NCBI GenBank assembly: GCA_038065835.1
Contig: JBBTQB010000007.1
Span: 1-51,420 of the forward strand
Length of the DNA: 51,420 nucleotides
Source of the DNA: Patescibacteria group bacterium
GTDB taxonomy: Bacteria; Patescibacteriota; Minisyncoccia; Minisyncoccales; Staskawiczbacteraceae
Reading direction: 5' to 3'
Under the pieces are notes generated by a model, which worked only from the letters and a program-made list of their open reading frames with translations, was not told where the DNA came from and did no database searches. The position numbers and the translations under genes are program-made. Position 1 is the first letter of the stretch. Every line of letters starts with the position of its first letter. Shown piece after piece: positions 6,699-50,984 of this stretch.

Positions 6699-6782
6699 GC
6701 ATCTCTCCACTGAAATGTGCTACTGCAGAAACCAAATCCCCCGCAGTATGGGTGCTAAGCAGAAATGCAAAGCATAGTAAAT

Positions 6783-28882: not shown

Positions 28883-28897
28883 GAAATATCGATGCTT

Positions 28898-35921: not shown

Positions 35922-37203
35922 AATCCTTCAGTGCTTTAATGTTCAACTCAATTTTTTCTATGGCTTTAATAAATAGGTCAATTTCCTTCTTGGTTTGGTT
36001 TGGCTGGCAAATATCCGTGCATAACAGTTCTTTTTCGTACATCCTTTCAGCTACCGGACATATGCCTTTGCTATAATCTATTTGATGTGGGTAATCTTTT
36101 GAAACAAATGGAAACTGGGAGTGAGAGTACACTTCTTTCTTTTGGTACATGGGAAACAAGTAAATGGGCTCTTGGTACCCTTGGCCTAAGGGGAAACCTT
36201 CGGCTTTCATTGCTTTGGCAAAAGTTTCTCTTTTTATTCCAATCTTCCTATCCCAAAATCTGATTGGATACGTATAATAAATATGAATATTTTCTTTGGG
36301 TAGGGAAGGAACAACGAGCCAGTTAAACTTTTTCAACCTTTTGGTCAAATAATTAGCTAATATTATTTTTTTATTATTTAGTTTTTTAAGTTTTTTAAGC
36401 TGCTCTGTAACAATTACTGCCTGTAACTCTGTCATACGATAATTACTTCCCAAAACTGGCTCAAAGACACCCTTATTCTTCAAATCATTCATTACTGCCT
36501 CTCCATGATTTCTTATTAACTGGGTGCGAAAAGCGTAGTTTTTATTGTTAGTTACCAGCATACCACCCTCACCAGATTGAATGACTTTATGAACATTAAA
36601 ACTAAATATTCCAATATCGCCTATCGTGGCTAAAAATTTATTTTTGTAAGTAGCTCCAGCTGATTGGGCATTATCTTCAATAATTTTTAAATTATATTTT
36701 TTAGCTATCTTTAAAATTTTACTATAATCAGCAGTTCCACCAAATAAATTAACGGTTAAAATGGCTTTGGTGTTTTTGTTTATCAATGGTTCAATTTTAT
36801 CTGGATCGATACAAAAATCATTTTCATTAATATCACAAAATACGGGCAAGGCATTGTTAAAAAGAATAGCTGAAGCTGTAGCTGACATGGTAAAAGGCGT
36901 AGTAATGACTTCGTCGCCGGGCCCAATACCCAAAGCCCCAATAGCTGCCTGCAGAGCGGTTGAAGCTGAATTGAAAGAAACAGCATACTTTATTTTGAAG
37001 TATTGGCAAAACTTTTTTTCTAATTCTTTTACATAATGTCCCCCTAAAAAATACTGCCCTTCCCTGCCCAAAAAAGCAGAAAGAACTTTAGTCTTCATCA
37101 CCTTTAAAGCAGCTCTTTCTTCTTCTTTTCCCAGCGAGTTGTAAGGTGGCAGTGGATTTTTCAACACCGGCCTGCCTCCAAAAATAGCGAGTTTATTTTT
37201 CAT
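35905..37203 (-). CDS. DegT/DnrJ/EryC1/StrS sugar aminotransferase (long form)
   Basis: 432 aa. PLP lysine in FSFNVHKVIQSGEGGMLVT. Confidence 0.8.
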   Translation of the reverse strand: MKNKLAIFGGRPVLKNPLPPYNSLGKEEERAALKVMKTKVLSAFLGREGQYFLGGHYVKELEKKFCQYFKIKYAVSFNSASTALQAAIGALGIGPGDEVITTPFTMSATASAILFNNALPVFCDINENDFCIDPDKIEPLINKNTKAILTVNLFGGTADYSKILKIAKKYNLKIIEDNAQSAGATYKNKFLATIGDIGIFSFNVHKVIQSGEGGMLVTNNKNYAFRTQLIRNHGEAVMNDLKNKGVFEPVLGSNYRMTELQAVIVTEQLKKLKKLNNKKIILANYLTKRLKKFNWLVVPSLPKENIHIYYTYPIRFWDRKIGIKRETFAKAMKAEGFPLGQGYQEPIYLFPMYQKKEVYSHSQFPFVSKDYPHQIDYSKGICPVAERMYEKELLCTDICQPNQTKKEIDLFIKAIEKIELNIKALKDYEKKL

Positions 37204-37308: not shown

Positions 37309-38568
37309 TCAATCACCTTCCCACCCTCGACCAATTAAAACATATTTATCTTCCTTTTCTTTTACTCCCACTCCTTCTCTTTTGTTAATAATAAATTGAC
37401 AATTATCCTTTTTAGTTAATCTAGCCGAATCAACGCCCTCATCTTTTGCATGATTGATTACAGAATCTTGGAGTTGCCACTGATTTCTTTTATTCTTTTT
37501 CCAAATTTCTGGATCTCTTTTCTTGTCAATATAAGACCAGAATTCCTTTTCTGGCATTGAAATCCAACTTAAAAATAATTGTAAGGCTTTTTTGCTTGGT
37601 TTTAAATTCTGATATTTTCTTACAAGTTCAATCCCCTTTTCCTGGGTTAGGCGCTTTAACCTAATTTCTCTAGTTGCATGATCGGTAGCTTTTCCGTAAC
37701 CCCATTTTAAAAATTTAATATAATCATGTAATTCAGAATAATTAAAACAGTCTACATCGTTATATGTGTCAAAAGTTCTTGGCTGCAAAACTGTTTTGTA
37801 GCCATAAAGATTTATCATCAACTCGTGCTGTTTTTTTGAGTCCCAGCGGATATAATTTGAAAGATAAATTCCTCTGACTCCAACTTTTTCTATTTCCTTA
37901 TCGTGAGGGTATTTATAGGGAGTAACATCACTTTCTGATATATTGTCATCAATCAAATCTTCCGATTCAAAACCCATCAAATCATGGTCTTTTCTATACC
38001 TTCTCGTCATTTCTACCTCGTCTAAATGGCTAAACTGACCAACTTGGTCAACTCCTTGATGAACCCCCCAAATGATAAGAGGAATTTTAAATCTAACAGC
38101 GATTTGAACCGGAAAAACAGTCTGCCCGGCAATACAATGCCAGTATACGCTGCCCATTTTTTCTATTGTATACCTCGTTATCTTCTTAACGGTTTCTGGG
38201 GAAATCGTTAAAGTAAATAAATCGCATCCAAAAATGGTTTTTAAATAGGCTAAGTTTCTTATTCCCAATTTTGTGTTGTATTGCTTGTTGTAAGTTACCA
38301 ATAAAGGATGCATTTTATAAACATTTTTTACGGTATGAACTATAAAATAAGAATCTCTAGCTCCGCTAACTGGTATAATGCAGTCATAATTTTTGCCGTC
38401 TTTATTTCTATACTGCTCCAGTATTTTTTTTAATTTTTTCTCACGCTCCGACCAATTAATAACGTCTTTTTCTCCATGGATAAGACACCCGCTGCAAACA
38501 CTTTTTTCATTAAAGATTATGCCAAGAGGATGATTTGCTGGGTATAAACATCTTACACAATATTTCAT
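37309..38568 (-). CDS. N-acetyl sugar amidotransferase (WbuX/PseA/LfnA-type PP-loop enzyme), copy 2
   Basis: 419 aa. N-terminal Cys cluster CVRCLYP...CSGC. PP-loop-like IIPVSGARDS. Confidence 0.75.
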   Translation of the reverse strand: MKYCVRCLYPANHPLGIIFNEKSVCSGCLIHGEKDVINWSEREKKLKKILEQYRNKDGKNYDCIIPVSGARDSYFIVHTVKNVYKMHPLLVTYNKQYNTKLGIRNLAYLKTIFGCDLFTLTISPETVKKITRYTIEKMGSVYWHCIAGQTVFPVQIAVRFKIPLIIWGVHQGVDQVGQFSHLDEVEMTRRYRKDHDLMGFESEDLIDDNISESDVTPYKYPHDKEIEKVGVRGIYLSNYIRWDSKKQHELMINLYGYKTVLQPRTFDTYNDVDCFNYSELHDYIKFLKWGYGKATDHATREIRLKRLTQEKGIELVRKYQNLKPSKKALQLFLSWISMPEKEFWSYIDKKRDPEIWKKNKRNQWQLQDSVINHAKDEGVDSARLTKKDNCQFIINKREGVGVKEKEDKYVLIGRGWEGD

Positions 38569-38676: not shown

Positions 38677-39546
38677 TTATATAATTTCTTCTTTAATATA
38701 TTCGAATCTAAGCTTATCTAAATAATTTTCCGGCCTTTTTGCTATTCTCCCGTTTTCCACAAAATTTATCTCTTGGTAATTGGCATAGGTATCTAATCTA
38801 ACATCTACCCCTTTTTTAATTAAAAATGATTTTAACGTTATCGGACTATGTTCTGTAAAATGGAAAAAGTTTCCTGCAGCCGAGGCCAAAGCGCTAGTTT
38901 TAGTGAAAACTTCCAAGAAATGTTTGGGCTGCCCAGCTCCTCCGCAGGCAATGACAGGGATTGAAACAGCTTTACTTATTTTTTTAATTATCTGCAGGTC
39001 ATAGCCTCGTTTTGAGCCATCCCTATCAATAGAATTAAGCAATATTTCTCCGGCCCCCAAATTTTCAACTTCTCTTGCCCATTTTACGGGATCCAATCCA
39101 GTAGGATTTTTGCCATTGTCAGAATAAACTTCATATTTGCCGTTTTTTCTTTTTACATCCATGGAAACTACGATGCACTGGTTTCCAAAAATTTCTGCTG
39201 CCTTTTTAATGATACTTGGATTTTTTAATGCCAATGCATTGATTGAAATTTTATCTGCCCCTTCTCGTATGATTTTCCTCATATCATCCAAGTTTCTTAT
39301 TCCTCCTCCTACAGTTAATGGCACGAAACTTTTTTTAGAAACTTCTGTTATCAATTTAAAATCTGGTCCCTTACCCTGCCTCGTTTTATCAATGTCAAGC
39401 AAAATTATCTCGTCTATGCCCCACTTATTTAAAAATTCAATACAAACACCAATGCTTCCAATCGGCAAATACTTTTTAAATCCTACGCTTTGCACAACAA
39501 TTCCGTCTTTAATGATTAATGTAGCGACAATTCTTTTTTTAAGCAT
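38677..39546 (-). CDS. HisF-like cyclase subunit (WbuZ-type) of a glycan amidotransferase complex
   Basis: 289 aa. LLDIDKT, TVGGGIR, NSIDRDGSKRGYD, ACGGAG. Confidence 0.85.
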   Translation of the reverse strand: MLKKRIVATLIIKDGIVVQSVGFKKYLPIGSIGVCIEFLNKWGIDEIILLDIDKTRQGKGPDFKLITEVSKKSFVPLTVGGGIRNLDDMRKIIREGADKISINALALKNPSIIKKAAEIFGNQCIVVSMDVKRKNGKYEVYSDNGKNPTGLDPVKWAREVENLGAGEILLNSIDRDGSKRGYDLQIIKKISKAVSIPVIACGGAGQPKHFLEVFTKTSALASAAGNFFHFTEHSPITLKSFLIKKGVDVRLDTYANYQEINFVENGRIAKRPENYLDKLRFEYIKEEII

Positions 39547-39552: not shown

Positions 39553-41589
39553 TTATTCCCTTGCGCTTTTTAACGCACTATAAAATGTTTCGTATTCTTT
39601 TACTAATTGGTAGTCATCAACATTCGCAACAAGATCATCATATTTTTGTGCATTTATAGTTTTTAAAGACTGACGTATTTTCTCAAAAACACCCTTGATT
39701 TTTTCTTCGGACGGATTTCTGGTGTCGACTATATATTCATAATGGCTTAATATGGGCGATTTGCTTAATAAGTATTTTAGTTCCGTAGCATCTTCTTCTT
39801 TTGTTCCAGGTGAAAAATCAAAGAATAATTCTGGCATAGCTTCCCTCATTTTTACTCTAAATCTTGGACTCTCTTTGAGGAGTTTCTCAAAATCTTTATG
39901 AGATTTTAATTCTTCAAACACTTCCCTTTGTAGGTTGTTATCTAAAAAAATCAACGATTGTGCATGGTAATCTGAAAGTGTTTTATTTTTTAAGTAATTT
40001 TTAAGAATACCCCTAAAATCTAGTTCAGAATTTGTTTGCGAAATCTTATATAGCGTTTCAATTTCAGTCCTGTCTGCACTCTCTGCAATTTTTAAGTATT
40101 CTTGTCCAATTGCTTTAATAAATGGTTTTGGTAGTCCCTGCGGCACTCCTTGTTTTTTCATCAGTTCCAATGCTCTTGATACATAAAACTGCTTTTCTTC
40201 TTCTGGGCTTACATGACCTCCTACATCACCAGGTTTTTCCATTTTCAAGGCATAAAAAGACAGAATGTGTTTTAATTGTTCTTCCTTATTTGGAGCAGTA
40301 TCTTTAAGGTCTTTTCCAATTGCATTAACCACAGGCTCCATTCTGGTGAGCGTATAATCTAAACCTTCTATCTCTTTAGTATCTAAATTTCTCTTTGCCC
40401 ACGTAGTATCAATGATAACCGCATTTGCAGCACCCCCTCTTGAAACAGTAACGAATGTATTCCAAGCATGTCCGCTCTTATTCATTTGTTGCTTGTTCCA
40501 ATCCTCTCTTTTGGGAGCAAAAGTTTCTGTGCCTTTTTCATATAGGCAATAAGTATCACGAAGTTGACTGAACTGCGTTTGGTTTTCCTTTAATGCTTCA
40601 AAAACTGCTTTAATAGCACTGGCAAAATTTCTGCAGACTCCATTACCCTTCCAATCTTTATTATCTCTTTTTTTCTTTCCTTCTTTCAAAAGTTCCAAGG
40701 TAGTGCTTTCATCTGCCTCTGTTTTTTCTGGCTCACCCGTATAAATTCCTTTGTATTTTTTTACATCACTCCACTTATATTTCGTTAAATCAATAACTAT
40801 TTGAGTTGCTAACTCTATTGCTTGTTTTGGAGTAAGTGCATCTAAATGTTCAATTTTTAACTGCTTCAAAATGTCTTGACCATCCTTTTGGAGATGTTCA
40901 GAAACAAAAGCAAAGAGCTTTTTCTCCCAATCTTTTTCTTTAATTGTTTCTTGATACGTTGAAGCTCCCGGTTCAGTTCCGTCCAGTCTTCCTTCCCCTA
41001 TTAAATACTTTTTAATGGAATCTGGTATTTCGTGAGTCTCTTTTGACGGGGCAACATTTGGATTAAATGCGGTAAGTTCTTCAAAGGCAATCTTTTCATT
41101 TTCAGCTGTTTTAATTTCAAGCAAGGGATTACGTGTTAACTTTTCCTCATCTTTTCTCCTTTCTAAAAAATAATCCTTAGCTTCGTTCCAGGTATCAAAT
41201 TCTTTATAGGTTGTGCCAATATAATGACCTGTTTTTGTATCAACTAATCCCGGAAGCATAACTCTAAATTTGCCCTCTGGATTTTCATCAATTCTGAAGA
41301 AATATTTTGAATATGTTTTTTCCAGCGAGGCTCTTTCAAATTGCTCTTTCACATCTTCTTTTACTTGTTCTACGGCTGTCTCAGCTTCTTGTCTTGTTTC
41401 AAAAATTTTCTTGGTTGTTCCAAAAATCAACCTTTTATTTTTATCCAAAAGACCGGGCATATTAACTTCAAAACCATTTTCAACTGGACTTATTTCATAC
41501 AAACCTATCACAGATTTCTTTTTTTCTGGCTTTAACCGTTCTTTATTATCTTGTGATTGTTGTTGTGACTGCTCATTTTTTTTTGACAT
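39553..41589 (-). CDS. Large cytoplasmic protein with transglutaminase/papain-like Cys-His-Asp core and duplicated N-terminal module
   Basis: 678 aa, no signal peptide. Candidate triad GVCRNFA / SGHAWNTFV / IIDTTW. Two ~50-aa N-terminal repeats (NGFEVNMPGLLDKNKRLIFGTTKKIFETRQEAE and GKFRVMLPGLVDTKTGHYIGTTYKEFDTWNEAK). Confidence 0.45.
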   Translation of the reverse strand: MSKKNEQSQQQSQDNKERLKPEKKKSVIGLYEISPVENGFEVNMPGLLDKNKRLIFGTTKKIFETRQEAETAVEQVKEDVKEQFERASLEKTYSKYFFRIDENPEGKFRVMLPGLVDTKTGHYIGTTYKEFDTWNEAKDYFLERRKDEEKLTRNPLLEIKTAENEKIAFEELTAFNPNVAPSKETHEIPDSIKKYLIGEGRLDGTEPGASTYQETIKEKDWEKKLFAFVSEHLQKDGQDILKQLKIEHLDALTPKQAIELATQIVIDLTKYKWSDVKKYKGIYTGEPEKTEADESTTLELLKEGKKKRDNKDWKGNGVCRNFASAIKAVFEALKENQTQFSQLRDTYCLYEKGTETFAPKREDWNKQQMNKSGHAWNTFVTVSRGGAANAVIIDTTWAKRNLDTKEIEGLDYTLTRMEPVVNAIGKDLKDTAPNKEEQLKHILSFYALKMEKPGDVGGHVSPEEEKQFYVSRALELMKKQGVPQGLPKPFIKAIGQEYLKIAESADRTEIETLYKISQTNSELDFRGILKNYLKNKTLSDYHAQSLIFLDNNLQREVFEELKSHKDFEKLLKESPRFRVKMREAMPELFFDFSPGTKEEDATELKYLLSKSPILSHYEYIVDTRNPSEEKIKGVFEKIRQSLKTINAQKYDDLVANVDDYQLVKEYETFYSALKSARE

Positions 41590-41635: not shown

Positions 41636-42262
41636 CTATGAAATGCTTAGATGATTGAAGAATGACCTAAACAACTTCAAGCCGTTGTTTTGTGATTTCT
41701 CGGGGTGAAATTGGACTCCAAAAATATTATCTTTTTGCACCGCCACCGCCATCTCTTGGCCATAATTACAAGTTGCCGCAGTATATTTTCTATTACACTC
41801 TAAATAGTAGCTATGGTCAAAATAAAAATTTGAACCATCTGATAATTTTGAGAATAAAGGCTCTTTTTTAAAAATATTTATTGTATTCCATCCAACGTGA
41901 GGTATTCTAAATCCCTTTTTTTCTTTAAACCTTACAACATTCCCGCTTATAAAACCCAATCCCCTGTGAAATCCGTTTTCTTCTGACCAGTCAGCAAACA
42001 CCTGGAATCCCAGGCAAATTCCTAAAATCGGCTTTTTCTTTTTTAAAACTTGTTGCTTTAACAATTGAGTGATTTTAAACTTTTCAAGATTCTTCATTGC
42101 TTCGCCAAAAGCGCCAACACCGGGTAAAATAAGAACCTTGGCATTTTCAATGTCCTTTTTTTTATTTGAAACCAAAAAATCATATCCTAAGGATTCAAGC
42201 GCGTTTATCACCGATTGATCATTTCCAACCCCATAATCAATAATAAGAATGGGTTTGTTCAT
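41636..42262 (-). CDS. HisH-like glutamine amidotransferase subunit (WbuY-type)
   Basis: 208 aa. Nucleophile elbow GICLGFQV. HVGWN. FGVQFHPEKS. Confidence 0.85.
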   Translation of the reverse strand: MNKPILIIDYGVGNDQSVINALESLGYDFLVSNKKKDIENAKVLILPGVGAFGEAMKNLEKFKITQLLKQQVLKKKKPILGICLGFQVFADWSEENGFHRGLGFISGNVVRFKEKKGFRIPHVGWNTINIFKKEPLFSKLSDGSNFYFDHSYYLECNRKYTAATCNYGQEMAVAVQKDNIFGVQFHPEKSQNNGLKLFRSFFNHLSIS

Positions 42263-43383
42263 TTTAACTCTACTTTTAATTTAAATTTCTCATTTCTATC
42301 TTTTTTCCAGATGTTTTTATTACGATATGATTCAGCAACTTTCCAAAATTTCTTTTCTGAAATTCCAAGGTATTTACAAAATCTTTTAATAAATCTATCA
42401 GCGCATTTGCCATCGTACTTTTTAACAAACTCTATTGCTTTTTTTCTTGTTATCATTTTGAGTCTCACTGCTTCAGCTATCTGGTCGGTAACTTGGCCAA
42501 AACCAAATTTTAAATATTTTAGCATCTGGTTTACCACTACATAGTCTTCGTCTAAGGCGCCGAAGCCATAAATATCTCCAATATCTTCAGGCGGATCGTC
42601 CCGCACCATCAAACCTCTTTTAACAGCAAATTCAGCATTTTTAAACCTTGTGAAATCTTTTATATAGTAACCCAAATAAACAATTCTCAATTTTGCCCAC
42701 TCTAATTCTTCATCTTCAGGATATTTGTATAAAATAAGATCTTGGTCCTCCATTTCTTCAGTCACTAAATTATTTTTTCTTGGATCTCCCCCTTGCAACG
42801 TATGATAATATTTCATTTTGTTTGCATCTCCTGTTAAAGATCCGACACCCGTATCTCCCATGGCGATAGCTGGATTTTCTCCTAAAAATATAAGAGGGAT
42901 ATGATAGGCAATAGCAACCTTAGGAGCCGACGCGTAAAGAGCCATCTCTGTTGATTTACACCAATTTCCATATTTCAAAAACCCTTGCAACATTAATTTT
43001 TTCCATACTTTAGGATTTGGAGCCGTTGTAATACAGTCAAAACCCAGGGAAATGAGATTTGATATGTTGCGAGCTCCCCTTTCTGCAAGCTGCTCTGGTG
43101 GGTATTGGCAAGAAACCAATAACGGCTTTAATCCTAGCTCATCTCTAACAAATATGGACTGGCGAGTACTGTCTTTTCCTCCGCTCACCCCAATAATACA
43201 ATCGTATCCTGAAACATTATGTTTCTTCCCATATTCAGCAATTTCCTTTAATTCCCTAGCTCTTTCCCCCCAATCAATTGCTTGGGTCTGTTTAGCAAAA
43301 AAACAGGCCAGGCAAACCCCATTTTTATCAAATTGAATGCCAGGCCTGGTATCTGGTTGAACACATTCTTTGCAATATTTCAT
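42259..43383 (-). CDS. N-acetyl sugar amidotransferase (WbuX/PseA/LfnA-type), copy 1
   Basis: 374 aa. CKECVQPDTRPG...CLAC. Canonical PP-loop IIGVSGGKDS. Confidence 0.8.
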   Translation of the reverse strand: MKYCKECVQPDTRPGIQFDKNGVCLACFFAKQTQAIDWGERARELKEIAEYGKKHNVSGYDCIIGVSGGKDSTRQSIFVRDELGLKPLLVSCQYPPEQLAERGARNISNLISLGFDCITTAPNPKVWKKLMLQGFLKYGNWCKSTEMALYASAPKVAIAYHIPLIFLGENPAIAMGDTGVGSLTGDANKMKYYHTLQGGDPRKNNLVTEEMEDQDLILYKYPEDEELEWAKLRIVYLGYYIKDFTRFKNAEFAVKRGLMVRDDPPEDIGDIYGFGALDEDYVVVNQMLKYLKFGFGQVTDQIAEAVRLKMITRKKAIEFVKKYDGKCADRFIKRFCKYLGISEKKFWKVAESYRNKNIWKKDRNEKFKLKVELK

Positions 43384-43405: not shown

Positions 43406-44116
43406 TTAACTTGATTTTCTAGCGTCTTCAATAAATATAGCCACTCCCTCTTTGGATTTTGCCGATACTAAGGATTTAGCAAGGGCTTCCGGAGGAATAG
43501 TTATGGCGTGGCCTCCAGCTCTTGAAAAGTATTCAACGTTTTCTGGACTCCTTACGGAAGCTATTAAAATTTCAACACCATTAATCTGATAACAATCAAG
43601 CCAATCGCGCGTATTTTTAATTGCGTTAAAAGCGACTTGAACTCCGTGCTCTTCTGCGATTCTACCCGCAAAAATGCTGATGAAATGAGGTTTTTTTGCA
43701 TTTGCAGATTGTAAACCATTGGCAAGAGTTTTTGCTGTCAATATTGCCTGATTATAGGTCATCACTGAGGTCACGTTTATAATTATTCCCTCTTTGACCA
43801 ATTGATTAATCGCTGAAAGCAAAGAGTTGCCATTTCTGTCAATTACAGTCACTTTCACTACTATATTTAGAGCCCAGTTGGTAAATTCTCTTGCCTGGCT
43901 TATAATTTCTTCTGGGTTTTCTGATGTTACTTCAACACTTAGTGGTCTTGGATCAATTAATTTTGCAATTTCCAGGATTCTTTCCTTAACTTTTTCCTTG
44001 TCCAAAATTCCCGCTTTTACAAAAGTTGTGGGATTGGTAGTAACCCCGTCGCAAAGCCCTTCTGCAAGATATTTTTTAATTTCCTCTATGCTGGCTGTGT
44101 CTATAAATATTTTCAT
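43406..44116 (-). CDS. Fructose-6-phosphate aldolase / type-3B transaldolase family protein
   Basis: 236 aa. MKIFIDTASIEEIKK and DGVTTNPT. Confidence 0.8.
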   Translation of the reverse strand: MKIFIDTASIEEIKKYLAEGLCDGVTTNPTTFVKAGILDKEKVKERILEIAKLIDPRPLSVEVTSENPEEIISQAREFTNWALNIVVKVTVIDRNGNSLLSAINQLVKEGIIINVTSVMTYNQAILTAKTLANGLQSANAKKPHFISIFAGRIAEEHGVQVAFNAIKNTRDWLDCYQINGVEILIASVRSPENVEYFSRAGGHAITIPPEALAKSLVSAKSKEGVAIFIEDARKSS

Positions 44117-44133: not shown

Positions 44134-46380
44134 TTAACTTTGTTTTACGAGATTGCCAATCCAATTAATTCTTTTGGGGACCGAGGTACTTTCTGCTTTT
44201 GTAGATACATAGTTTACTAAATCAAAATATCTGTTTGTCGAATTTTCATTGTCAAAATAACCATGCAAATATAAATTATTGTTCAACATACGAACATTAT
44301 CCTCAATAAAGACGGCTGAATGCGTTGTAAACTTATGCTCTTCTGGTCCCTTATCAGAATCTTGAAAAAGGTAAAGATTTTTCAGTTCTCCTTCTTTAAA
44401 GGCTCTTTTAAGGTCTTCAAGAACTTGCTCTTTAGAGACATTATTTGTAAGCTTGAACCTAAAATCAAGCATTGAAACTCCGTCGTAGGGAACGACGGTG
44501 TAATTTACCGTAAAATTATTTTTGTTAATGAAATCTAAAAGATTAGGTCCTGATTTTTCAAGAGTACAAAATTTTCTGTTCATAGTATTAAAATCTTTAA
44601 GTTTGTAATTGGGAACACTGTGTACAAAGTTAGCATCGCTTTCCAAAACGCCGTACTTTTTATTGATATAATTTGTTAAAGGAACATATGAGTTGACTGT
44701 GCAAGAACCGTAAGAAATTACCTTCATGTCTTTATTGTATTCAAGATGATTAAAACCATAAATTAAATTTTTAGCGTCCCATGAAGTTGCAGAAATTACT
44801 ACTAATTTTGTGTTGTCTAGAATATACTTTTCACAGTCTTTGGCAATATTGTTTTTACCAGAGCATTCCAAAAATATATTAGGCTTTCCTACCCAAGGTA
44901 TTTGGTCTTTTAATTTGTTTGTATACTCTATAGTAACCTTTGCGGCATCTGAGTCAGAAAAAACCAAATTACTTTGCAATATACTCACCTTATAATCTTT
45001 AAAAGAAACGTAAGAGTCATTATTAATGATAGAAAGCGCATCTTCAATTGAAAGAAAATTATCGTTAATGTAATTAATTTCAAAATTAGCGCTGTTTTTC
45101 CTATCAAGCCAATACCTTAAAAGGTGAAGTCCGAACCTGCCAAATCCATTTATTCCAGTAGTTGTTATAGGCCTTGTTTTAATAATGAGGGTTTCTTGTA
45201 TTTTATCTTCTATTTTCAGTAAATCTTCAAGTGTATCTGCAGAACTTATAATTTGATTGGTCCTTGCAGCTGAATGTACCAGGGGTTTTACTCTATCTCC
45301 AATTTTAGACCTGAAATAGACATCTCGCACCCCCCTTATATTTTTAAGTTCTTCTGCCCCTTGAATATCAACAATGATTCCTGAATCATGGATTACCGAA
45401 ATGGTAGAAGACCATTTCACCCATTTGGGCACCAAGTCAACCGGATCTAATGGAAGCCCACAGGCAATATCTATTGTAGCTTTTAAGATATCCATGCCAA
45501 AGCTATAGGGTTTTCTCAGTTGTGAATCAAATCCTCCGGAAGTTCTGGCAGTTACTTCAAGAATTCTTACATTTCCCTCTTCATCTACTAATAAATCTCC
45601 CTTAAATGCTCCATCCGTGACACCCAAGACCTTGGCAGCTTTATCCATTTTTTCATACATGGCGCTCTGCACGCTTTCTGGCAGTAAAGAGGGAGTGCGG
45701 GAGCCAATATGCACCGCATATTTTTCCTTTGGCAGGAAAATCCTGTCTGAAACGCCAGCGGGATATAATTTACCCTGATACAAAACTGTGTCCACACTAT
45801 ATTCTTCACCTTTTAATTCTTCTTCAATTAAAACTTCTTTTGTAAAGTTGCAAAAACTTAACGCTAAGTTAAATGCTTGCTCTAACTGGTCTTCGCTAGT
45901 TATTTTAGTTATCCCCTTACAAGCCCAGCTGTCTGCTGGCTTTACATAACAGGGGAAACCAACATCTTTTACTGCTTCCTCAACTTCCTGTAGGTTCTTA
46001 GCCGTGGCGAAGCGGACATTTTCTACGCCAGCCCCCGAAAGAATGTGACGCATTCTAATTTTACTCTTGCAATTTAAAGCAGCTTCGGGGTCTATGCCGG
46101 GCAAACCAGCTTCTTTTGCAGCATAAGCTACGGTGTAAGCGACATCATGTCCTTGAGTGTATACTGCAATGATTTTGCCTTCTGACTTTAACTGCTTTGC
46201 CACTTTAGCTGCTCCACCTAAGTCATTTATATCAACGCAATAGAAAAAGTCAGCGTATTCTCTTGCAACACAGTTTTCTGAACCATCTAAAAGATAGGTG
46301 GTAAAACCAAGCTCTTTTGCCTTCTTCAAACCCGGTATCTGCAGCTCACCCCCCCCAATAATTAAAATTCCTTTTTCCAT
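44134..46380 (-). CDS. Fusion protein: N-terminal ATP-grasp ligase + C-terminal divergent GAPDH-like dehydrogenase
   Basis: 748 aa. Residues about 1-400 are ATP-grasp-like (GFPCYVKPADSWACKG, ILEVTARTSGG). Residues about 405-748 carry GAPDH landmarks INGFGRFGLHLLR, SYGSCTVNSYVPL (catalytic Cys context) and YFDNENSTNRYFDLV. Confidence 0.7.
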   Translation of the reverse strand: MEKGILIIGGGELQIPGLKKAKELGFTTYLLDGSENCVAREYADFFYCVDINDLGGAAKVAKQLKSEGKIIAVYTQGHDVAYTVAYAAKEAGLPGIDPEAALNCKSKIRMRHILSGAGVENVRFATAKNLQEVEEAVKDVGFPCYVKPADSWACKGITKITSEDQLEQAFNLALSFCNFTKEVLIEEELKGEEYSVDTVLYQGKLYPAGVSDRIFLPKEKYAVHIGSRTPSLLPESVQSAMYEKMDKAAKVLGVTDGAFKGDLLVDEEGNVRILEVTARTSGGFDSQLRKPYSFGMDILKATIDIACGLPLDPVDLVPKWVKWSSTISVIHDSGIIVDIQGAEELKNIRGVRDVYFRSKIGDRVKPLVHSAARTNQIISSADTLEDLLKIEDKIQETLIIKTRPITTTGINGFGRFGLHLLRYWLDRKNSANFEINYINDNFLSIEDALSIINNDSYVSFKDYKVSILQSNLVFSDSDAAKVTIEYTNKLKDQIPWVGKPNIFLECSGKNNIAKDCEKYILDNTKLVVISATSWDAKNLIYGFNHLEYNKDMKVISYGSCTVNSYVPLTNYINKKYGVLESDANFVHSVPNYKLKDFNTMNRKFCTLEKSGPNLLDFINKNNFTVNYTVVPYDGVSMLDFRFKLTNNVSKEQVLEDLKRAFKEGELKNLYLFQDSDKGPEEHKFTTHSAVFIEDNVRMLNNNLYLHGYFDNENSTNRYFDLVNYVSTKAESTSVPKRINWIGNLVKQS

Positions 46381-46396: not shown

Positions 46397-46427
46397 GTAA
46401 TAATTTTTCGTGACGAAAAATTATTAC
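46397..46427. repeat. Intercistronic 14-bp perfect hairpin incorporating the HAD stop codon
   Basis: GTAATAATTTTTCG-tga-CGAAAAATTATTAC. Confidence 0.85.
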
Positions 46428-47122
46428 GCAGTAAGTTTTTTTTCTAATTCTTTTAAACTTTTAACTATTATTAAATTGTCTTTAACTAAATTTTCTTTGT
46501 TATTCGTTATCCAACAAACTTTAGCTCCCATATTAAGAAATCCCTCAACATCATTTTTAAAATTATCACCTATATAAAGAAACTCTTCTGGAAATTTTAC
46601 TGATATTTTATTCAAATATTTATTAAGACTTTCAAGTATTTTTTTGGTTGGTTTTTTATCTTTCTTGCCTTTTCCGTAAATAACGAAGTCAAAATAATCA
46701 TAAATTCCGGCCTTTTTTATTCTTCCTTCCTGGTACGACCGTTTTCCATCTGTAATAATTCCCATTTTAAATACAGTTTTCTTTATTGATTCCAATAAAT
46801 CTTTTGCGCCATTTAGGAGTTTTTCGTCTTGGAAAGTTTTTCTTAGTTCTAATAAAATCTCTTCTTTAAATTCCTTGCCAATTTTAAGCTCGGCTAAAGT
46901 ATCATCTAAGTGAAATTTGTAATTTGGTCCCTTCTTATTATATATCTCAAAAAACCTTTTTTCCAAATTTGGTGATAAAAAACTGTAATCTCTTAAAACT
47001 TTTTGCCACCTTTGTCTTATTGAATACTGCCCGTCAATCAAAGTATCATCAAAATCAAATCCAATTGCTCTTATGTTTCCAAAAAATTTAGTATTTCCTG
47101 ATTTTTTCTGTAATTTTGCCAT
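46424..47122 (-). CDS. HAD-superfamily phosphatase
   Basis: 232 aa. DxDxT motif GFDFDDTLIDG. ITDGK. YIGDNFKNDVEG. Confidence 0.7.
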   Translation of the reverse strand: MAKLQKKSGNTKFFGNIRAIGFDFDDTLIDGQYSIRQRWQKVLRDYSFLSPNLEKRFFEIYNKKGPNYKFHLDDTLAELKIGKEFKEEILLELRKTFQDEKLLNGAKDLLESIKKTVFKMGIITDGKRSYQEGRIKKAGIYDYFDFVIYGKGKKDKKPTKKILESLNKYLNKISVKFPEEFLYIGDNFKNDVEGFLNMGAKVCWITNNKENLVKDNLIIVKSLKELEKKLTA

Positions 47123-47777
47123 ATTTTTTCCTTAGCTGGCTAATTCCTTTTTCTACAACTTTTTCATCAAAAGTCAAACTGCCTTCTGTTCTTATGTAGA
47201 CATATAGGGGAATGGGTAGGTGTTTGCCTATTTTTTTGGCTTTCATCATTCTCAACAAAAAGTCATATTCTGCAAATACAAAATCTTTGTTGTAAAGCCC
47301 TAATTCTTTGAATAATTCTTTCTTAAACATTATTGCAGTAGCCAAGCTGTTAAATATGTTTTTTTTTAAAGAAACCTTTTTCCTTTTTACGCCATAAAAA
47401 GGCTTTTCAAAATAATCACAATAAACAAAGTCCGCAAATTTATCCTTTTCAAATTCCTTCAACATTTTTTCTAAAGTATAGGGAAGAAACTGGTCATCTG
47501 AATCAAGTAAAGTTACATATTTGCCCCGGCTTTCCAAAATACCTCTATTGGTTGCAGGAGTACCTCCCAAGTGTTCTTGATGAATTAATCTTATTTTCCC
47601 TTTGTAATTTTTTAGGATATCCAGTGTATTGTCTTCTGACCCATCATCTATTACCAGGATTTCGTAAAGTTCTTTATTTAATGTTTGACGAAGAGCGCTG
47701 TCAATAGCTTTTTTCACGAATTTCCCTGAGTTATAAGTACGTATTATAACGCTTATTTTTGGTTTGTTATTTTTCAT
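47088..47777 (-). CDS. GT2-family glycosyltransferase
   Basis: 229 aa. ISVIIRTYNSGKF, VIDDGSEDNT, LLDSDDQF. Confidence 0.8.
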   Translation of the reverse strand: MKNNKPKISVIIRTYNSGKFVKKAIDSALRQTLNKELYEILVIDDGSEDNTLDILKNYKGKIRLIHQEHLGGTPATNRGILESRGKYVTLLDSDDQFLPYTLEKMLKEFEKDKFADFVYCDYFEKPFYGVKRKKVSLKKNIFNSLATAIMFKKELFKELGLYNKDFVFAEYDFLLRMMKAKKIGKHLPIPLYVYIRTEGSLTFDEKVVEKGISQLRKKYGKITEKIRKY

Positions 47778-47786: not shown

Positions 47787-48893
47787 TCATTTTGAAAGCA
47801 CGTGTTCCCAACTTATGCTCCGATATTTTTGCAGATTTTTTGTTGCTTTATATCCCCCAACCAGCAATTCGTAATACTTAGGGTCCAATCCTCTTCTATG
47901 ATTGCCCGGTCTTAAAACGGCAATATTTTCCCTGCTGAATTTTTCCCCCTTTTTAATGTTTTTTATGGCAAAGACGCATCTTTGAGCAAAGGATCTAGGA
48001 ATCATTTCATTTTTATAAGCTTTTCTTTCTGGACTCCCTAGTAATTGGTTTTGAATCTTTATTTTCCTGCCTATTTTCATCTCTTTTTCTGTTCGCCTTA
48101 TGGTTTTTACCATTAAAGTAAGCTCTTTGGGCTCTAGGGCAAAAAAGTGATCAGGCCCTGGCATATTTTTATCTAGTGTTATATGTTTTTCAATGATTTT
48201 TGCTCCCAATGCCACGGCTGCCCTTGGCGCAATTATTGGGTCAGCTGAATGGTCTGAATATCCTATCACTATATCAGGAAAAGCTGTCTTTAGGGCGTAA
48301 ATCACAGAAAGATTAAGTCTATTCAGGGGTGCTCCGTATTCGGCAATGCAATGCAGAAGGGCTATTCTATTGTTTTTTTCCTCTTTAAATATTTCCAGTG
48401 CCTCTGCTATCTCTTTTATTTCAGCTGCCCCACAGGAAAATATAATTGGCTTCTGGAATCTAGCCACATATCTTAAAAGTGGAATGTGGGTTATTTCATA
48501 CGAGGCAAACTTAAAAGCTGGCATTTTGTATTTTTTTAAGATATCCGCCCCCTTCTCTTCGCAGACAGTGCAAAAAAATTCTAACCCCTTACTTTCAGCA
48601 TATTTCTTTAATTTGGGAATCCAACTTTGGGGCAATTGGGCACTTTTGACTATTTGATATATATTCTTCTTCCTGCCTTGACCGCTTTTATCATTTCCGG
48701 CGCTAGGAGGATACATTTTTTTAGCAAAAAACAGTTGAAATTTTACCGCATCGCAACCGGCCCTTGCCGCTGAATCTATCAATTTTAAGGCATTTTCGTA
48801 TTCTCCATTAAAGTTAATACCAACTTCAGCAACTATAAAACAGGGGTTGCTGCCTCCAATTTTAGTTTTTCCAATGTTAAACTCTTTTGCCAT
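47787..48893 (-). CDS. Nonulosonic-acid synthase (NeuB/PseI/LegI family) with SAF domain
   Basis: 368 aa. CFIVAEVGINFNG, DAVKFQLF, GYSDHS. C-terminal SAF-like RENIAVLRPG. Confidence 0.85.
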   Translation of the reverse strand: MAKEFNIGKTKIGGSNPCFIVAEVGINFNGEYENALKLIDSAARAGCDAVKFQLFFAKKMYPPSAGNDKSGQGRKKNIYQIVKSAQLPQSWIPKLKKYAESKGLEFFCTVCEEKGADILKKYKMPAFKFASYEITHIPLLRYVARFQKPIIFSCGAAEIKEIAEALEIFKEEKNNRIALLHCIAEYGAPLNRLNLSVIYALKTAFPDIVIGYSDHSADPIIAPRAAVALGAKIIEKHITLDKNMPGPDHFFALEPKELTLMVKTIRRTEKEMKIGRKIKIQNQLLGSPERKAYKNEMIPRSFAQRCVFAIKNIKKGEKFSRENIAVLRPGNHRRGLDPKYYELLVGGYKATKNLQKYRSISWEHVLSK

Positions 48894-49035: not shown

Positions 49036-50232
49036 TCATTTTCTGTAATATGCAATAATTTTTATTACGGCCCTAACAACATCCTCTGCATCTTTCTTGC
49101 CTAAATCAGGATGCATAGGCAAGGAAATTATTCTGTCAAAAATATATTCTGCATTGGGAAAATTACCTCGTCTAAATCCAAATTTTTCCTTATAATAAGG
49201 GTGCAAATGGACAGGAATAAAATGAACGCTGGCTCCAATATTTTCTGCGTCCAAAGCAATGAAAAACTGATTTCTGTCTACTTTTAATTTATCAATGTCA
49301 ATTAAAATTGAGTACAGGTGCCTAGCGTGCTTTATGTACTTTCTTGGAGTAGGAATAGTGATTTCTTTAACATGTTTAAAATTCTTGTTATAAAACTGGG
49401 CTATTTTTTCTCTCTTCCTAATAAAACCCTCCAATTTTTTAATTTGATGCATGCCCATAGAGGCCTGGATGTCTGTCATATTATATTTAAATCCAGGATA
49501 CTTTATCTCATAATACCAATATCCTTTCTTAGAATACCTTTTCCAGGCATCCCTATTCATACCGTGTAGACTCATTACTCTTATCTTTTCTTCTGCGTTA
49601 TTATCTTTTAAGCAAACCATTCCACCTTCGGCAGTCGTTATATTTTTTGTTGCGTAAAAGCTGAAGGTTGTATAATCACTGATTGTTCCTATATTTCTGC
49701 CTTTATACTTAGCTCCTATGGCGTGAGCCGCGTCCTCTATTACTACTAAGTTATGCTTCTTGGCAATCTTTAAAATTTCATCCATATCGCAGGGATGTCC
49801 TCCGTAGTGCACGGGCATTATGGCTTTGGTTTTCTTTGTTATAGCTCTTTCAATTAAACTAGGATCAATATTATAGGTATCTTTTTGAATATCAACGAAA
49901 ACCGGTTTTGCTCCAACATGCAAAATGACATTAGAAGTAGCCGCAAAAGTAAACGGGGTTGTAATAACTTCATCCCCGAACCCAATACCAGCTGCAATTA
50001 GTGATAAATGTAGCCCGGCAGTACAGGAATTTAAAGCTACGGTATATTTGCAACCCACATATTTTCTAAGTATCTGTTCAAATTTATGTGTTTTTGGACC
50101 AGTGGTTATCCAGCCCGATTTTAAAGTATCAACTACTTCACTAACTTCCTCCTTGCCAAAAGAATAAGGGAAGGGAGATAGTTGACTTTTTCTTACTTTT
50201 TTACCACCGGCAATAGCTGGTTTCTCTATCAT
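49036..50232 (-). CDS. DegT/DnrJ/EryC1/StrS sugar aminotransferase (PseC/LegC/ArnB-like)
   Basis: 398 aa. PLP lysine in FSFYATKNITTAEGGMV. Confidence 0.85.
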   Translation of the reverse strand: MIEKPAIAGGKKVRKSQLSPFPYSFGKEEVSEVVDTLKSGWITTGPKTHKFEQILRKYVGCKYTVALNSCTAGLHLSLIAAGIGFGDEVITTPFTFAATSNVILHVGAKPVFVDIQKDTYNIDPSLIERAITKKTKAIMPVHYGGHPCDMDEILKIAKKHNLVVIEDAAHAIGAKYKGRNIGTISDYTTFSFYATKNITTAEGGMVCLKDNNAEEKIRVMSLHGMNRDAWKRYSKKGYWYYEIKYPGFKYNMTDIQASMGMHQIKKLEGFIRKREKIAQFYNKNFKHVKEITIPTPRKYIKHARHLYSILIDIDKLKVDRNQFFIALDAENIGASVHFIPVHLHPYYKEKFGFRRGNFPNAEYIFDRIISLPMHPDLGKKDAEDVVRAVIKIIAYYRK

Positions 50233-50984
50233 ATTCTATTTCTTTGAACTATATGAGCGTTAATTTCTTTTAATTCCGGCTTTTGATTAATAAACTCTAA
50301 AACTTCTTCTGTTCCAAAAAATTCTCCTTTCTTATACAAATTTTCGTAAATTTTAGTTATTAATTCCAAGTCTTCTTTAGTATCAAGAGTTAAGCGCAAA
50401 TCAGGATTTTGGAAGTATTTGGGAAGTTCTACCTTGCTAATCTTAAAAATATTGGGGTTTTCTTGAAAATAAGATGTAAGGTTTTCTCTGTTATAGGTGT
50501 CTCCTGCCTTTTTATAAGCCAAATCTAATGCTTGAAAATTCAAAACTGCTACATCTAATCCCAAAGGCAGAAGCCTTGAGGGATAAGAGGTGTCAGTATA
50601 GTCAGAATTTCTGTCTATGTGTTGTTTAATTGTTAAATCAATTATCTCTGGATCAATTAGGGGCTTATCAGCCGGAACTTCTACAACAACGTCACAGCCA
50701 TTTTCTTTAGCCGCTAAATAAACCCTTTCTAGAACTTCTTTTTCGCTGCCTCGGTAATAGGAAATCGAGTTTTCCAAGGCAAATTTCTCTAAAATATCAT
50801 TCTCTTTTGTATTAGGAATCGCTAAAATAATCTGGCTCATCAATTTTGAAAACCTTAAGCGCTCAATGATGTGCTGCAGTACAGATTGGCCAAAAATAGG
50901 AAGTAAAACTTTTCCTGGCAATCTTTCAGAGCTCATTCTTGCTTGAATAATTGCAGATATTTTTTTTTGCTCCGAGTTTACCAT
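50229..50984 (-). CDS. NulO/acylneuraminate cytidylyltransferase-family protein (SpsF/PseF-like)
   Basis: 251 aa. AIIQARMSSERLPGKVL. Confidence 0.75.
   Translation of the reverse strand: MVNSEQKKISAIIQARMSSERLPGKVLLPIFGQSVLQHIIERLRFSKLMSQIILAIPNTKENDILEKFALENSISYYRGSEKEVLERVYLAAKENGCDVVVEVPADKPLIDPEIIDLTIKQHIDRNSDYTDTSYPSRLLPLGLDVAVLNFQALDLAYKKAGDTYNRENLTSYFQENPNIFKISKVELPKYFQNPDLRLTLDTKEDLELITKIYENLYKKGEFFGTEEVLEFINQKPELKEINAHIVQRNRI

Follow-up and report, generated by a model that had tools for sequence, protein, structure and literature searches.

Nonulosonic acids (NulOs), among them pseudaminic acid (Pse), legionaminic acid (Leg), and their relatives, decorate flagella, S-layers, capsules, and lipopolysaccharides, and influence both recognition by the immune system and susceptibility to phages. 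They owe much of their diversity to N-acyl groups other than acetyl, and the genes behind the glyceroyl-type groups are stated in the literature to be unknown in Tannerella forsythia and partly known in Campylobacter jejuni (Cj1295). Here, we analyze an open reading frame (ORF) of 748 codons found at positions 44134..46380 of a 51,420-nucleotide stretch of DNA from a Patescibacteria group bacterium (family Staskawiczbacteraceae, assembly GCA_038065835.1, contig JBBTQB010000007.1), hereafter referred to as the window. This ORF is the fused ligase and dehydrogenase of a conserved gene module, consisting of an optional GNAT acetyltransferase, a HAD phosphatase, an ATP-grasp ligase, and a dehydrogenase, the latter being in this case a relative of glyceraldehyde-3-phosphate dehydrogenase (GAPDH). 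We propose, at a probability of about 50%, that the dehydrogenase of this module makes a small hydroxy-acid which the ligase would then link, through an amide bond, to a NulO precursor instead of acetyl.

Systems related to the module

PglB2 from Neisseria is an ATP-grasp/phosphoglycosyltransferase protein linked to the glyceramido sugar GATDH, a role that was deduced from the correlation between allele and glycan. In this system, the ATP-grasp domain replaces the N-acetyltransferase acting on the 4-amino group of 2-acetamido-4-amino-2,4,6-trideoxyhexose, and the same class of intermediates feeds the synthesis of Pse and Leg. Contrary to the window protein, with which it was compared by description, PglB2 has its ATP-grasp domain fused to a phosphoglycosyltransferase, and no HAD or GAPDH-like partner has been described for it.

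Glyceroyl-type N-acyl groups, such as the one proposed here, are found in the NulOs of T. forsythia and C. jejuni NCTC 11168; for neither organism has a GAPDH-like or ATP-grasp gene been linked to them. The T. forsythia sugar, Pse5Am7Gra, is an N-glyceroyl NulO with an acetamidino group whose genetic basis was stated to be unknown, and the non-core genes of the corresponding NulO locus are not described in the published accounts. In C. jejuni, Cj1295 is genetically required for 5-(2,3-di-O-methylglyceroyl)-pseudaminic acid. ATP-grasp genes, for their part, have been described in the flagellin NulO operon of Shewanella oneidensis (SfmE, SO_3265), which is associated with a mono-acetylated Pse carrying a nitrogen-free, O-methylated C9H16O7 moiety and where deletion of sfmE causes only a partial mass loss, and in the flagellin NulO locus of Clostridium acetobutylicum (CA_C2189). 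Both are ATP-grasp ligases of ~410 aa found with methyltransferase, short-chain dehydrogenase/reductase (SDR), acyl carrier protein (ACP), or HAD genes beside NeuB and, likened to the window protein by description, they differ from it in having no GAPDH-like partner.

At the level of the single enzymes, the best structure and sequence matches of the N-terminal half of the window protein are the L-amino-acid ligases BL00235 (PDB 3vot), RizA, and BacD/YwfE, which have the LAL_C2 domain in common with it but are only about 17-21% identical, and which act in dipeptide antibiotic synthesis rather than in sugar tailoring. A comparable succession of steps is known from the FkbH-type formation of glyceryl-ACP from 1,3-bisphosphoglycerate, which likewise combines a GAPDH-type product, a HAD-like phosphatase, an activated glyceryl group, and, often, O-methylation. 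However, that system relies on the housekeeping GAPDH and on a carrier protein, has no ATP-grasp enzyme, and belongs to polyketide and not to glycan chemistry.

The presence of ATP-grasp, HAD, and carrier genes in NulO and flagellin loci was already known, as was, on genetic grounds, the replacement of an acetyltransferase by an ATP-grasp enzyme in the case of PglB2. What appears to be new in the locus analyzed here is the predicted N-acyl tailoring of an amino sugar by an ATP-grasp ligase with a dedicated dehydrogenase of the GAPDH fold. We found no description in the literature of the GAPDH-like partner, of the subfamily devoid of the substrate-phosphate (Ps) site to which it belongs, or of the HAD-ATP-grasp-dehydrogenase module, and nothing relevant about transaldolase or GAPDH-like genes in NulO clusters. 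Database names for these proteins are no finer than "ATP-grasp domain-containing protein", "biotin carboxylase", or "glyceraldehyde 3-phosphate dehydrogenase".

Architecture of the fusion protein

The ORF list shows 748 codons without interruption at 44134..46380, on the minus strand, which carries the whole gene set of the window and to which all window coordinates given below refer. The protein can be divided into an ATP-grasp half of the L-amino-acid-ligase type (aa 1-402, 45175..46380), a linker with the sequence RPITTT (aa 403-408, 45157..45174), and a GAPDH-like half (aa 409-748, 44134..45156), the linker being placed by comparison of the junctions in the fused proteins of the window and of loci L001, L034, and L035 with those in the split pairs of loci L036 and L037. 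A preliminary description, made from the sequence of the window, had proposed a full ATP-grasp domain joined to a highly diverged GAPDH-like dehydrogenase, and had suggested a domain search and an AlphaFold model as the way to confirm both folds. Both were run, and Pfam, AlphaFold2, and Foldseek agree on the two folds.

In the N-terminal half, Pfam places ATP-grasp models over aa 106-312 and LAL_C2 at aa 333-401, with Dala_Dala_lig_C (3e-14), ATP-grasp_4 (6e-12), and LAL_C2 (1e-10) all above their gathering scores. Sequence matches of the N-terminal 405 residues in the PDB are 4dim, the L-amino-acid ligase BL00235 (3vot), and BacD, and Foldseek likewise retrieves L-amino-acid ligases, with a TM score, normalized to the target, of 0.89 for 3vot. 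The conserved motifs comprise the hinge EEELKGEEYSVD (aa 186-197) and the Mg/ATP loop EVTARTSGG (aa 275-283), and the invariants of the family, as seen in 28 sequences, include K107, K147, E186, D262, E275, and R279, whose individual roles in nucleotide and Mg binding we take from what is generally known about ATP-grasp enzymes. Fold, LAL C-terminal domain, and conserved nucleotide and Mg residues are all those of an L-amino-acid ligase-type enzyme.

The C-terminal half is more diverged. Gp_dh_N is found at aa 409-509 with 36.0 bits, above its gathering score of 31.7, and Gp_dh_C at aa 626-702 with a sub-threshold 18.8 bits vs 24.4. Nevertheless, the C-terminal 343 residues align over their whole length with solved GAPDHs (query 3-321, chain 5-331, best E-value 2e-26), and the landmarks on which the preliminary description had based its assignment are all present: the NAD-binding start INGFGRFG at aa 410-417, SCTVNS at aa 559-564 with the catalytic Cys560 (GAPDH Cys149, codon 44701..44703), VHSVP at aa 586-590 with His587 (GAPDH His176, codon 44620..44622), and the tail FDNENSTNRYFDL at aa 709-721, which starts with FDNEN (aa 709-713). 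The AlphaFold2 model of the fusion protein, built from a balanced alignment of fusion proteins plus standalone halves, is confident (pLDDT 91, pTM 0.77), with the final ~18 residues of the GAPDH-like half disordered. Foldseek matches this half to GAPDHs (TM 0.84-0.87) and to the erythrose-4-phosphate dehydrogenase 8zn1 (TM 0.81).

The fusion as a state of a coupled gene pair

The fusion had been regarded as unusual, and the joining of two genes by a sequencing error had been named as a possible objection to it. A sequencing or assembly join is ruled out, as an identical 748-aa protein occurs on no fewer than seven contigs, which come from three or more independent samples (ERR3858113, ERZ1292641, and SRR32696705), and six further proteins share the architecture, with N-halves 80-89% and C-halves 67-70% identical to those of the window protein and with in-frame linkers of 6-9 residues that show many substitutions between them. 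The contig name found in ERZ1292641, Hain_H51_02um, would point to groundwater of the Hainich aquifer.

The fusion is, then, real and rare, but it is a polymorphic state of a common adjacent pair and not an isolated arrangement. In the sister contigs L036 and L037, two genes overlapping by the stop/start sequence ATGA are found at the position of the linker of the window protein; their ATP-grasps are 80-83% identical to the ATP-grasp half of the window, and the gene order of L037 is that of the window. A profile search showed that standalone ATP-grasps of ~405 aa (P0353, P0359 with 88% identity, P0362, P0364, P0366-P0368, and P0370) are as numerous as the fused ones in this lineage, and split and fused forms are interleaved in a neighbor-joining tree, which is to be read as indicative only. 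The fusion amounts, therefore, to one rare form of a polymorphic gene pair with coupled translation, reached by a small and labile step, and is by itself a minor polymorphism; the interest resides in the module.

A GAPDH-like subfamily without the substrate-phosphate site

The C-terminal half falls into a subfamily of its own within the GAPDH superfamily, not noticed before, most members of which are standalone proteins of ~326 aa. When 1.84 billion representatives were searched exhaustively, 49 clusters were obtained with E<1e-30 at 35-50% identity, whereas canonical GAPDHs appeared only at about 1e-20 and 28% identity. An indexed search returned 518 clusters (90% identity) with E<=1e-10, of which the best 120 are all standalone.

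The residues of this subfamily were compared in an alignment of 7 fusion C-halves and 156 standalone members (163 in all) with 9 canonical GAPDHs, numbered after the Geobacillus stearothermophilus enzyme, with which 8 canonical database GAPDHs agree at the positions quoted. GxGxxG, Asp32, Ser148-Cys149-Thr150, His176, Pro233, and Asn313-Glu314 are essentially invariant, the catalytic Cys being present in 163/163 members and the Asp at the Asp32 column in 154/156 standalone and 7/7 fusion proteins. Thus, the conservation of the catalytic Cys and His and of the NAD site, expected from the preliminary description, is borne out. The conserved Asp32 argues for specificity towards NAD+ rather than NADPH and, being an NAD-specifying residue, favors the oxidative direction.

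On the contrary, the ligands of the Ps site are replaced in 163/163 members, with Thr179 changed to Gln, Pro, or Ala and Arg231 to Val, Leu, or Ile, and never an Arg at position 231, whereas Thr and Arg are found in 9/9 canonical controls. In the window protein these positions are occupied by Pro590 and Val629. Other changes in the subfamily are Asp181 to Tyr and Thr151 to Val. The segment 180-210 is shortened and remodeled into a subfamily motif, RKFCTLE(KSGP), at aa 602-612 of the window protein, and it is placed differently by MAFFT, phmmer, and hmmalign, so that any equivalence to the inorganic phosphate (Pi) site rests on an unreliable alignment. Ser148 and Thr150 are kept, an Arg is conserved at or near the position of Arg195, and an S-G dipeptide, a possible stand-in for Thr208-Gly209, precedes the helix matching GAPDH 210-216 in 85/163 members, including the window protein. 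A deletion of the Pi loop Thr208-Gly209-Ala210 was also considered and then dropped, since both the profile alignment and the secondary structure of the model show that this segment is not reliably alignable.

Compared to GapA, the phosphorylating GAPDH, and to its non-phosphorylating homologue Epd, the GAPDH-like half has in common the fold (TM 0.81-0.87) and the GxGxxG, Asp32, Ser148-Cys149-Thr150, His176, and Asn313-Glu314 residues, but differs in the replaced Thr179 and Arg231, in the Asp181 to Tyr change, and in the remodeled S-loop/Pi-loop segment. By the own criteria of those families it is neither a type I GAPDH (TIGR01534, 112.7 bits vs a cutoff of 367.2, with the match covering model positions 3-186 only) nor an Epd (TIGR01532, 64.4 bits vs 530.55). 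Of the preliminary reading as a GAPDH, therefore, the fold and the strong divergence stand, while a strict glyceraldehyde-3-phosphate dehydrogenase does not: as judged from the alignment, the thiol and NAD machinery is retained and the Ps site is lost. A housekeeping GAPDH is ruled out by this loss, by the scores under the cutoffs, and by the constant placement of the gene in glycan loci.

A conserved module across 115 loci

The distribution of the fusion, which the preliminary description had proposed to survey, was followed across 115 ATP-grasp loci taken from contigs with specific homologues, from named genomes (25 loci), and from metagenomes (80 loci). Annotation relied on our own ORF calling and on single-query phmmer comparisons with the window proteins, a procedure by which diverged partners may be missed. 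In 68/115 loci, the gene directly upstream of the ATP-grasp is the HAD phosphatase, and in 6/115 the two are fused, either as HAD+ATP-grasp (one locus) or as GNAT+HAD+ATP-grasp (five loci, on Woesearchaeota-type contigs). The downstream partner is a GAPDH-like protein in 48 cases, encoded by a separate gene in 44/115 loci and fused in 4/115, and PdxA in 37/115. Less common are an unassigned ORF (8/115, seven of them an SDR of a distant group) and an AAA33 kinase-like gene with a diverged GAPDH-like gene after it (1/115); no partner was found within 400 nt in 2/115 loci, and in the remaining 19/115 the contig is too short to tell. NeuB and the CMP-transferase (CTP_transf_3) nearly always adjoin the module. 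Three types of fusion, namely HAD+ATP-grasp, GNAT+HAD+ATP-grasp, and ATP-grasp+GAPDH-like, tie its parts together, and in many loci other than the window, L001, and L008 a GNAT adjoins the module or is fused to it. Class-III aminotransferases of the HemL-like type are also frequent in module loci and, in some of them, fused to the CMP-transferase.

The dehydrogenase position is interchangeable. Among ATP-grasps that are close relatives, a GAPDH-like partner and PdxA have taken each other's place on three or more occasions, ATP-grasps at about 56% identity pairing with PdxA and more distant ones with the SDR. The PdxA partner scores above the NCBIfam equivalog cutoff for 4-hydroxythreonine-4-phosphate dehydrogenase, and the kinase-like gene of L003 shows a weak likeness to homoserine kinase.

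Hosts of the module are found in the candidate phyla radiation (Yonathbacteria, Peribacteria), the DPANN archaea, Prochlorococcus, SAR86, Gastranaerophilales, Bacteroidales/Prevotellaceae, Nitrospinota, Acidobacteria, and Solirubrobacterales, and the nearest ATP-grasp relatives among the named-genome loci belong to Peribacteria and Yonathbacteria. Tannerella was absent from the 25-locus scan of named genomes, which needed exact peptide patterns and does not establish its absence. With this distribution, which takes in gut Bacteroidales and phage-like contigs, the module probably adds to cell-surface diversity in many uncultured lineages.

Some variants of the module are worth describing separately. 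On the contigs of the Woesearchaeota type (L010:7232-11236, L012:8657-11236, and also L050, L053, and L115), the GNAT+HAD+ATP-grasp proteins reach 859-1334 aa, and the same contigs encode CMP-transferase and class-III aminotransferase fusions of ~700 aa, with a standalone GAPDH-like gene and NeuB following. A distant ATP-grasp branch (L023-L031, 34-37% identity; Acidobacteria, Solirubrobacterales, Nitrospinota, and Gemmatimonadaceae) has no HAD and shows instead a HemL-like aminotransferase and a methyltransferase before the ATP-grasp and an SDR dehydrogenase after it, an order that resembles the layout of the Shewanella sfm operon. Directly upstream of many PdxA-type modules (L092:2721-4853, L103:2051-4177, their neighbors, and also L091-L113) lies a phage portal protein (PHROG 1216, 5e-24 and 1e-17), and these contigs, where the module is sometimes followed by NeuB, appear to be phage-like contigs with NulO-tailoring genes.

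Gene displacement in Magnetofaba and a second genome

The GAPDH-like gene is also found where the ATP-grasp is not. In the cultured bacterium Magnetofaba australis IT-1, the GAPDH-like gene P0341 adjoins a flagellin gene in an operon without ATP-grasp (L119, LVJN01000020.1, 1377605-1396603), which contains TylF-like and Methyltransf_23/14 methyltransferases, a PP-binding carrier, an AMP-binding ligase, and a phosphatase of the Inositol_P family. In a second genome (L120), this set recurs together with a gene of the Antibiotic_NAT family and one with DUF4910/DUF2172/HTH_47, DUF2172 being the family of Cj1295 from C. jejuni. In these two loci, the AMP-binding ligase and the carrier stand in for the ATP-grasp, and the IMPase-family phosphatase for the HAD, while the GAPDH-like gene and the methyltransferases are constant. 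The pathway to be expected from such a displacement would lead from a phosphorylated aldehyde to the acid, and then, through dephosphorylation and O-methylation, to activation and transfer onto a NulO of the flagellin or the cell surface. The resemblance to the Cj1295 region of C. jejuni lies in the methyltransferases, carrier, and phosphatase that accompany the GAPDH-like gene and, in L120, in the gene of the Cj1295 family itself; the window contains no Cj1295 homologue.

The module, its three to four genes connected through fusions of three kinds and through analogous gene displacement, is a candidate solution to the question of which genes introduce glyceroyl-type groups. Its GAPDH-like subfamily exceeds 500 clusters at 90% identity, the enzyme pair is testable for the chemoenzymatic synthesis of modified NulOs, and M. 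australis offers a cultured carrier of the GAPDH-like gene.

Proposed function of the module

According to our proposal, the GAPDH-like half would use NAD+ and the Cys560/His587 pair to oxidize a small hydroxy-aldehyde, itself stemming from a sugar phosphate, to the acid by way of a thiohemiacetal and a thioester, as suggested by its conserved residues. The HAD phosphatase, judging from its constant co-occurrence, would strip the phosphate ester from the precursor or from an intermediate. The ATP-grasp half, given its fold and family, would activate the acid with ATP as an acyl-phosphate and then form the amide with the amino group of the NulO precursor. Since PdxA or an SDR can take the place of the dehydrogenase, the ligase is expected to work on its own with ATP and not with an acyl-phosphate supplied by the GAPDH-like partner. 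The fusion would then do nothing else than stabilize a 1:1 complex, as already suggested by the ATGA coupling of the split genes.

The most likely acceptor would be the 4-amino group of a nucleotide-linked 4-amino-4,6-dideoxy-N-acetylhexosamine, the future N7 of the NulO, and the ligase would replace the missing acetyltransferase PseH, LegH, or PglD. This acceptor is the most plausible one, given that another enzyme able to acylate the 4-amino group is missing from the window, L001, and L008, all three of which are devoid of GNAT and hexapeptide acetyltransferases. Nor was a class-III aminotransferase found in the window. The analogy with PglB2 and GATDH drawn in the preliminary description is a sensible one in this respect, as the literature describes PglB2 in those terms and the window has neither type of acetyltransferase. 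WbuX, HisH, and HisF, by the function of their families, would turn an N-acetyl into an acetamidino group, and the predicted product would be a NulO with an acetamidino and an unusual N-acyl group, similar to Pse5Am7Gra from Tannerella.

As for the identity of the acyl group, our leading guess is a glyceroyl, possibly O-methylated. In its favor are the known cases of GATDH/PglB2, of Pse5Am7Gra, and of the Pse derivative from C. jejuni, as well as the connection with the Cj1295 family and the two methyltransferases. The main alternative would be a C4 acid such as erythronate. In this route, erythrose-4-phosphate from the transaldolase of the lineage would give 4-phosphoerythronate in an Epd-like reaction, and the GAPDH-like gene (as Epd), PdxA, and the homoserine-kinase-like gene all have homologues acting on 4-phospho-C4 acids.

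Several points weigh against the proposal as a whole. The plain route from glyceraldehyde-3-phosphate through 3-phosphoglycerate to glycerate is weakened by the loss of the Ps site, and a dedicated dehydrogenase would be redundant for a glyceroyl group, 3-phosphoglycerate being abundant in any cell. The GAPDH-like gene always comes with a phosphatase, yet its own Ps phosphate site is lost. Moreover, PdxA is not an acid-forming enzyme, so that the supply of the acid by the dehydrogenase does not transfer simply to the PdxA loci, and some loci, such as L006 with a PseI above the cutoff, have a full Pse set including a GNAT, so that the module there would add to N-acetylation and not replace it. 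Finally, the ligase might use an amine, a hydroxyl, or a carboxylate as its acceptor.

Alternative mechanisms

Among the mechanisms that compete with the oxidation and amide ligation proposed above, one runs in the reductive direction: the ATP-grasp would phosphorylate a carboxylate, Cys560 would capture the acyl-phosphate, and its reduction to the aldehyde, in the manner of ArgB/ArgC or of aspartokinase and aspartate-semialdehyde dehydrogenase, would be followed by transamination or condensation, thus turning a carboxyl into an aminomethyl group or an extended one. In favor of this, the GAPDH reaction can run both ways, the genes stand in the fitting order, with the ATP-grasp before the dehydrogenase, a fusion would shield the labile acyl-phosphate, the transaldolase could take an aldehyde acceptor, and the frequent HemL-like class-III aminotransferase, even fused to the CMP-transferase, belongs to a family acting on semialdehydes. 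The combination of GNAT, kinase-like step, reductase, and class-III aminotransferase also mirrors the logic of the arginine and lysine pathways. We consider this direction unlikely, however, as no class-III aminotransferase was found in the window or its lineage, Asp32 indicates NAD and not NADPH, the PdxA and SDR partners of closely related ATP-grasps cannot reduce acyl-phosphates, the ATP-grasp is of the amide-ligase (LAL) type with LAL_C2, and the constant phosphatase would be left without a role. The swapped partners bear in the same way on a direct hand-off, the idea put forward in the preliminary description, in which an unphosphorylated aldehyde would be oxidized, its thioester resolved by Pi, and the resulting acyl-phosphate passed to the ATP-grasp, so that the oxidation energy, kept as enzyme thioester or acyl-phosphate, would pay for the sugar amide through NAD+ reduction without the use of ATP, or even with ATP being regenerated. 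Acyl-phosphates are made by GAPDH chemistry and used by ATP-grasp enzymes, the gene pair is fused or linked by translational coupling, the subfamily keeps Ser148, Thr150, and an Arg in or close to the position of Arg195, with the S-G dipeptide in about half of its members, and the loss of the Ps site suits an unphosphorylated substrate. Against it, the nucleotide and Mg motifs of the ATP-grasp are intact, its relatives at about 56% identity are partnered with PdxA and more distant ones with an SDR, neither of which makes acyl-phosphates, an adenylating enzyme is the partner of the GAPDH-like gene in Magnetofaba and L120, and the Pi-loop region is not reliably alignable, with S-G missing in the other half of the subfamily. 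This hand-off seems distinctly improbable to us; if true, it would be a new coupling of substrate-level oxidation to ligation, with the fusion and the ATGA pairs as the basis of a channel.

A third possibility is that the GAPDH-like half oxidizes an aldehyde borne by the sugar and that the ATP-grasp amidates the resulting carboxylate, the C1 carboxylate of the NulO, or that of a uronate with an amine or amino acid. L-amino-acid ligases do couple a carboxylate to the amine of an amino acid, and amino acids and amino-alcohols amide-linked to sugar acids occur in O-antigens and archaeal N-glycans; furthermore, the product of PdxA is an amine, 3-amino-2-oxopropyl phosphate, which the HAD could dephosphorylate. 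But no uronate-forming genes stand beside the module, we know of no NulO with an amidated carboxylate or a C9 carboxylate, and the 4-amino group in L008 and in the window would have no other enzyme to acylate it, all of which makes this amidation very unlikely. The chances of the C-terminal half being a housekeeping GAPDH or a decaying copy, joined by assembly error or accidental read-through and functionally uncoupled from the ligase, are negligible. Even though a small change at the ATGA overlap is all that separates split from fused forms, the identical ORF comes from at least three samples and the seven diverged fused proteins have different in-frame linkers, an invariant Cys, His, and NAD site goes together with the consistent replacement of Thr179 and Arg231, and all contexts examined place the subfamily in loci for NulO or flagellin glycans, also in organisms with a canonical GAPDH.

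The NulO operon of the window

The glycan locus in which the preliminary description had placed the fusion is specifically, by its gene content, a NulO operon with an acetamidino-forming unit. Upstream of the fusion gene, it encodes a CMP-nonulosonate cytidylyltransferase (CTP_transf_3, 50229..50984, Pfam 1.6e-32), a PseC/LegC-like sugar aminotransferase (49036..50232, DegT 2.5e-137, with 405.6 bits in the PseC model vs a cutoff of 423.5), a NeuB-family nonulosonic acid synthase (47787..48893, Pfam NeuB 2e-79, with 302 bits in the NCBIfam NeuB and 266 in the PseI model, both below cutoff), a GT2 glycosyltransferase (47088..47777, Pfam 8e-33), and the HAD-IA phosphatase (46424..47122, Pfam HAD_2 6e-23, TIGR02253 7e-30). 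The GT2 gene, lying between NeuB and HAD, is conserved by synteny in the fusion lineage. The fusion relatives are syntenic with the window operon, and L001 and L034 also carry NeuB, the CMP-transferase, and the aminotransferase of the PseC/LegC type, as do most loci of the census.

The HAD-IA phosphatase has its motif I, DFDDT, at aa 23-27, and its nearest solved relatives are PH1655 and the N-acylneuraminate-9-phosphatase. Its similarity to the latter (NANP) led us to consider it as a NulO-9-phosphate phosphatase, an assignment that was rejected, given that the loci look Pse/Leg-like, that is, 9-deoxy, and that a HAD-IA likeness at 1e-11 does not fix the substrate.

Downstream of the fusion gene lies a small transaldolase (43406..44116, Pfam TAL_FSA 2e-36, PDB 3s0c 1e-23 with alignment), whose Schiff-base Lys, Glu, and Phe in the place of Tyr make it of the transaldolase type and not of the fructose-6-phosphate aldolase (FSA) type. 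An FSA-type aldolase making glyceraldehyde-3-phosphate from fructose-6-phosphate was ruled out on the same grounds. Being confined to the fusion lineage (by synteny in L001, L034, L035, and L037) and missing in L036, this gene is not a core part of the module.

The acetamidino unit follows, with a WbuX-family N-acetyl sugar amidotransferase (copy 1, 42259..43383, TIGR03573 2e-94, above cutoff), a HisH-like glutamine amidotransferase (41636..42262, Pfam GATase 1.4e-23), a HisF-like cyclase or ammonia channel subunit (38677..39546, Pfam His_biosynth 1.3e-60), and a second WbuX copy (37309..38568, TIGR03573 1e-101). Homologues of WbuX, HisH, and HisF form acetamidino sugars in Pseudomonas, Legionella, and Methanococcus. 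The two WbuX copies with a single HisH/HisF pair suggest that an amidine is formed in two steps, or that one step uses an acyl group other than acetyl. An ORF of 678 aa without any Pfam or NCBIfam match (39553..41589) lies between the HisH-like and HisF-like genes and represents a lineage-specific insertion, HisH being directly followed by HisF in L001, L035, and L037.

The operon continues with a second DegT aminotransferase (35905..37203), a GT-B-like protein of 345 aa (34884..35921) that is a candidate nucleoside diphosphate-sugar hydrolase or 2-epimerase and whose L001 orthologue gives a faint Epimerase_2 match, a methyltransferase (34028..34894), a GFO/IDH/MocA oxidoreductase (32858..33805), Wzx (31414..32871), and a Capsule_synth protein of 498 aa (29943..31439) with a weak match (9e-08) to the BFO_1060 family. 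That family contains the legionaminic/pseudaminic acid transferase of T. forsythia, and the Capsule_synth protein is thus a candidate NulO transferase. Next come, as identified by Pfam, a Methyltransf_23 methyltransferase (28921..29946), a GT4 glycosyltransferase (27716..28945), and a TylF-type O-methyltransferase (26980..27729). The TylF-type and Methyltransf_23 families are those that also accompany the GAPDH-like gene in Magnetofaba and L120, and their two representatives in the window may be members of the module.

The remaining glycan genes of the window, whose G+C content is 34%, encode a PglF-like dehydratase, a DegT protein, a PIG-L protein, two WbqC and two Bac_transf proteins, and several glycosyltransferases and methyltransferases, and the window ends with MurB and SecA, a neighborhood that it has in common with L008. 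Together with the sample name, the G+C content, and the closest ATP-grasp relatives, this shared neighborhood suggests that the host is probably a groundwater bacterium of the candidate phyla radiation type. Rfam and tRNA scans found no RNA genes in the window, including a 1-kb stretch of 50% G+C against the ~34% background, which may be foreign DNA and within which a 292-aa ORF with a GTG start and no Pfam family is found (5832-6710). A WbqC-like and a Bac_transf (phosphoglycosyltransferase) gene form a pair that is duplicated in tandem (14691-15443, 16187-16903; 15544-16212, 16994-17611).

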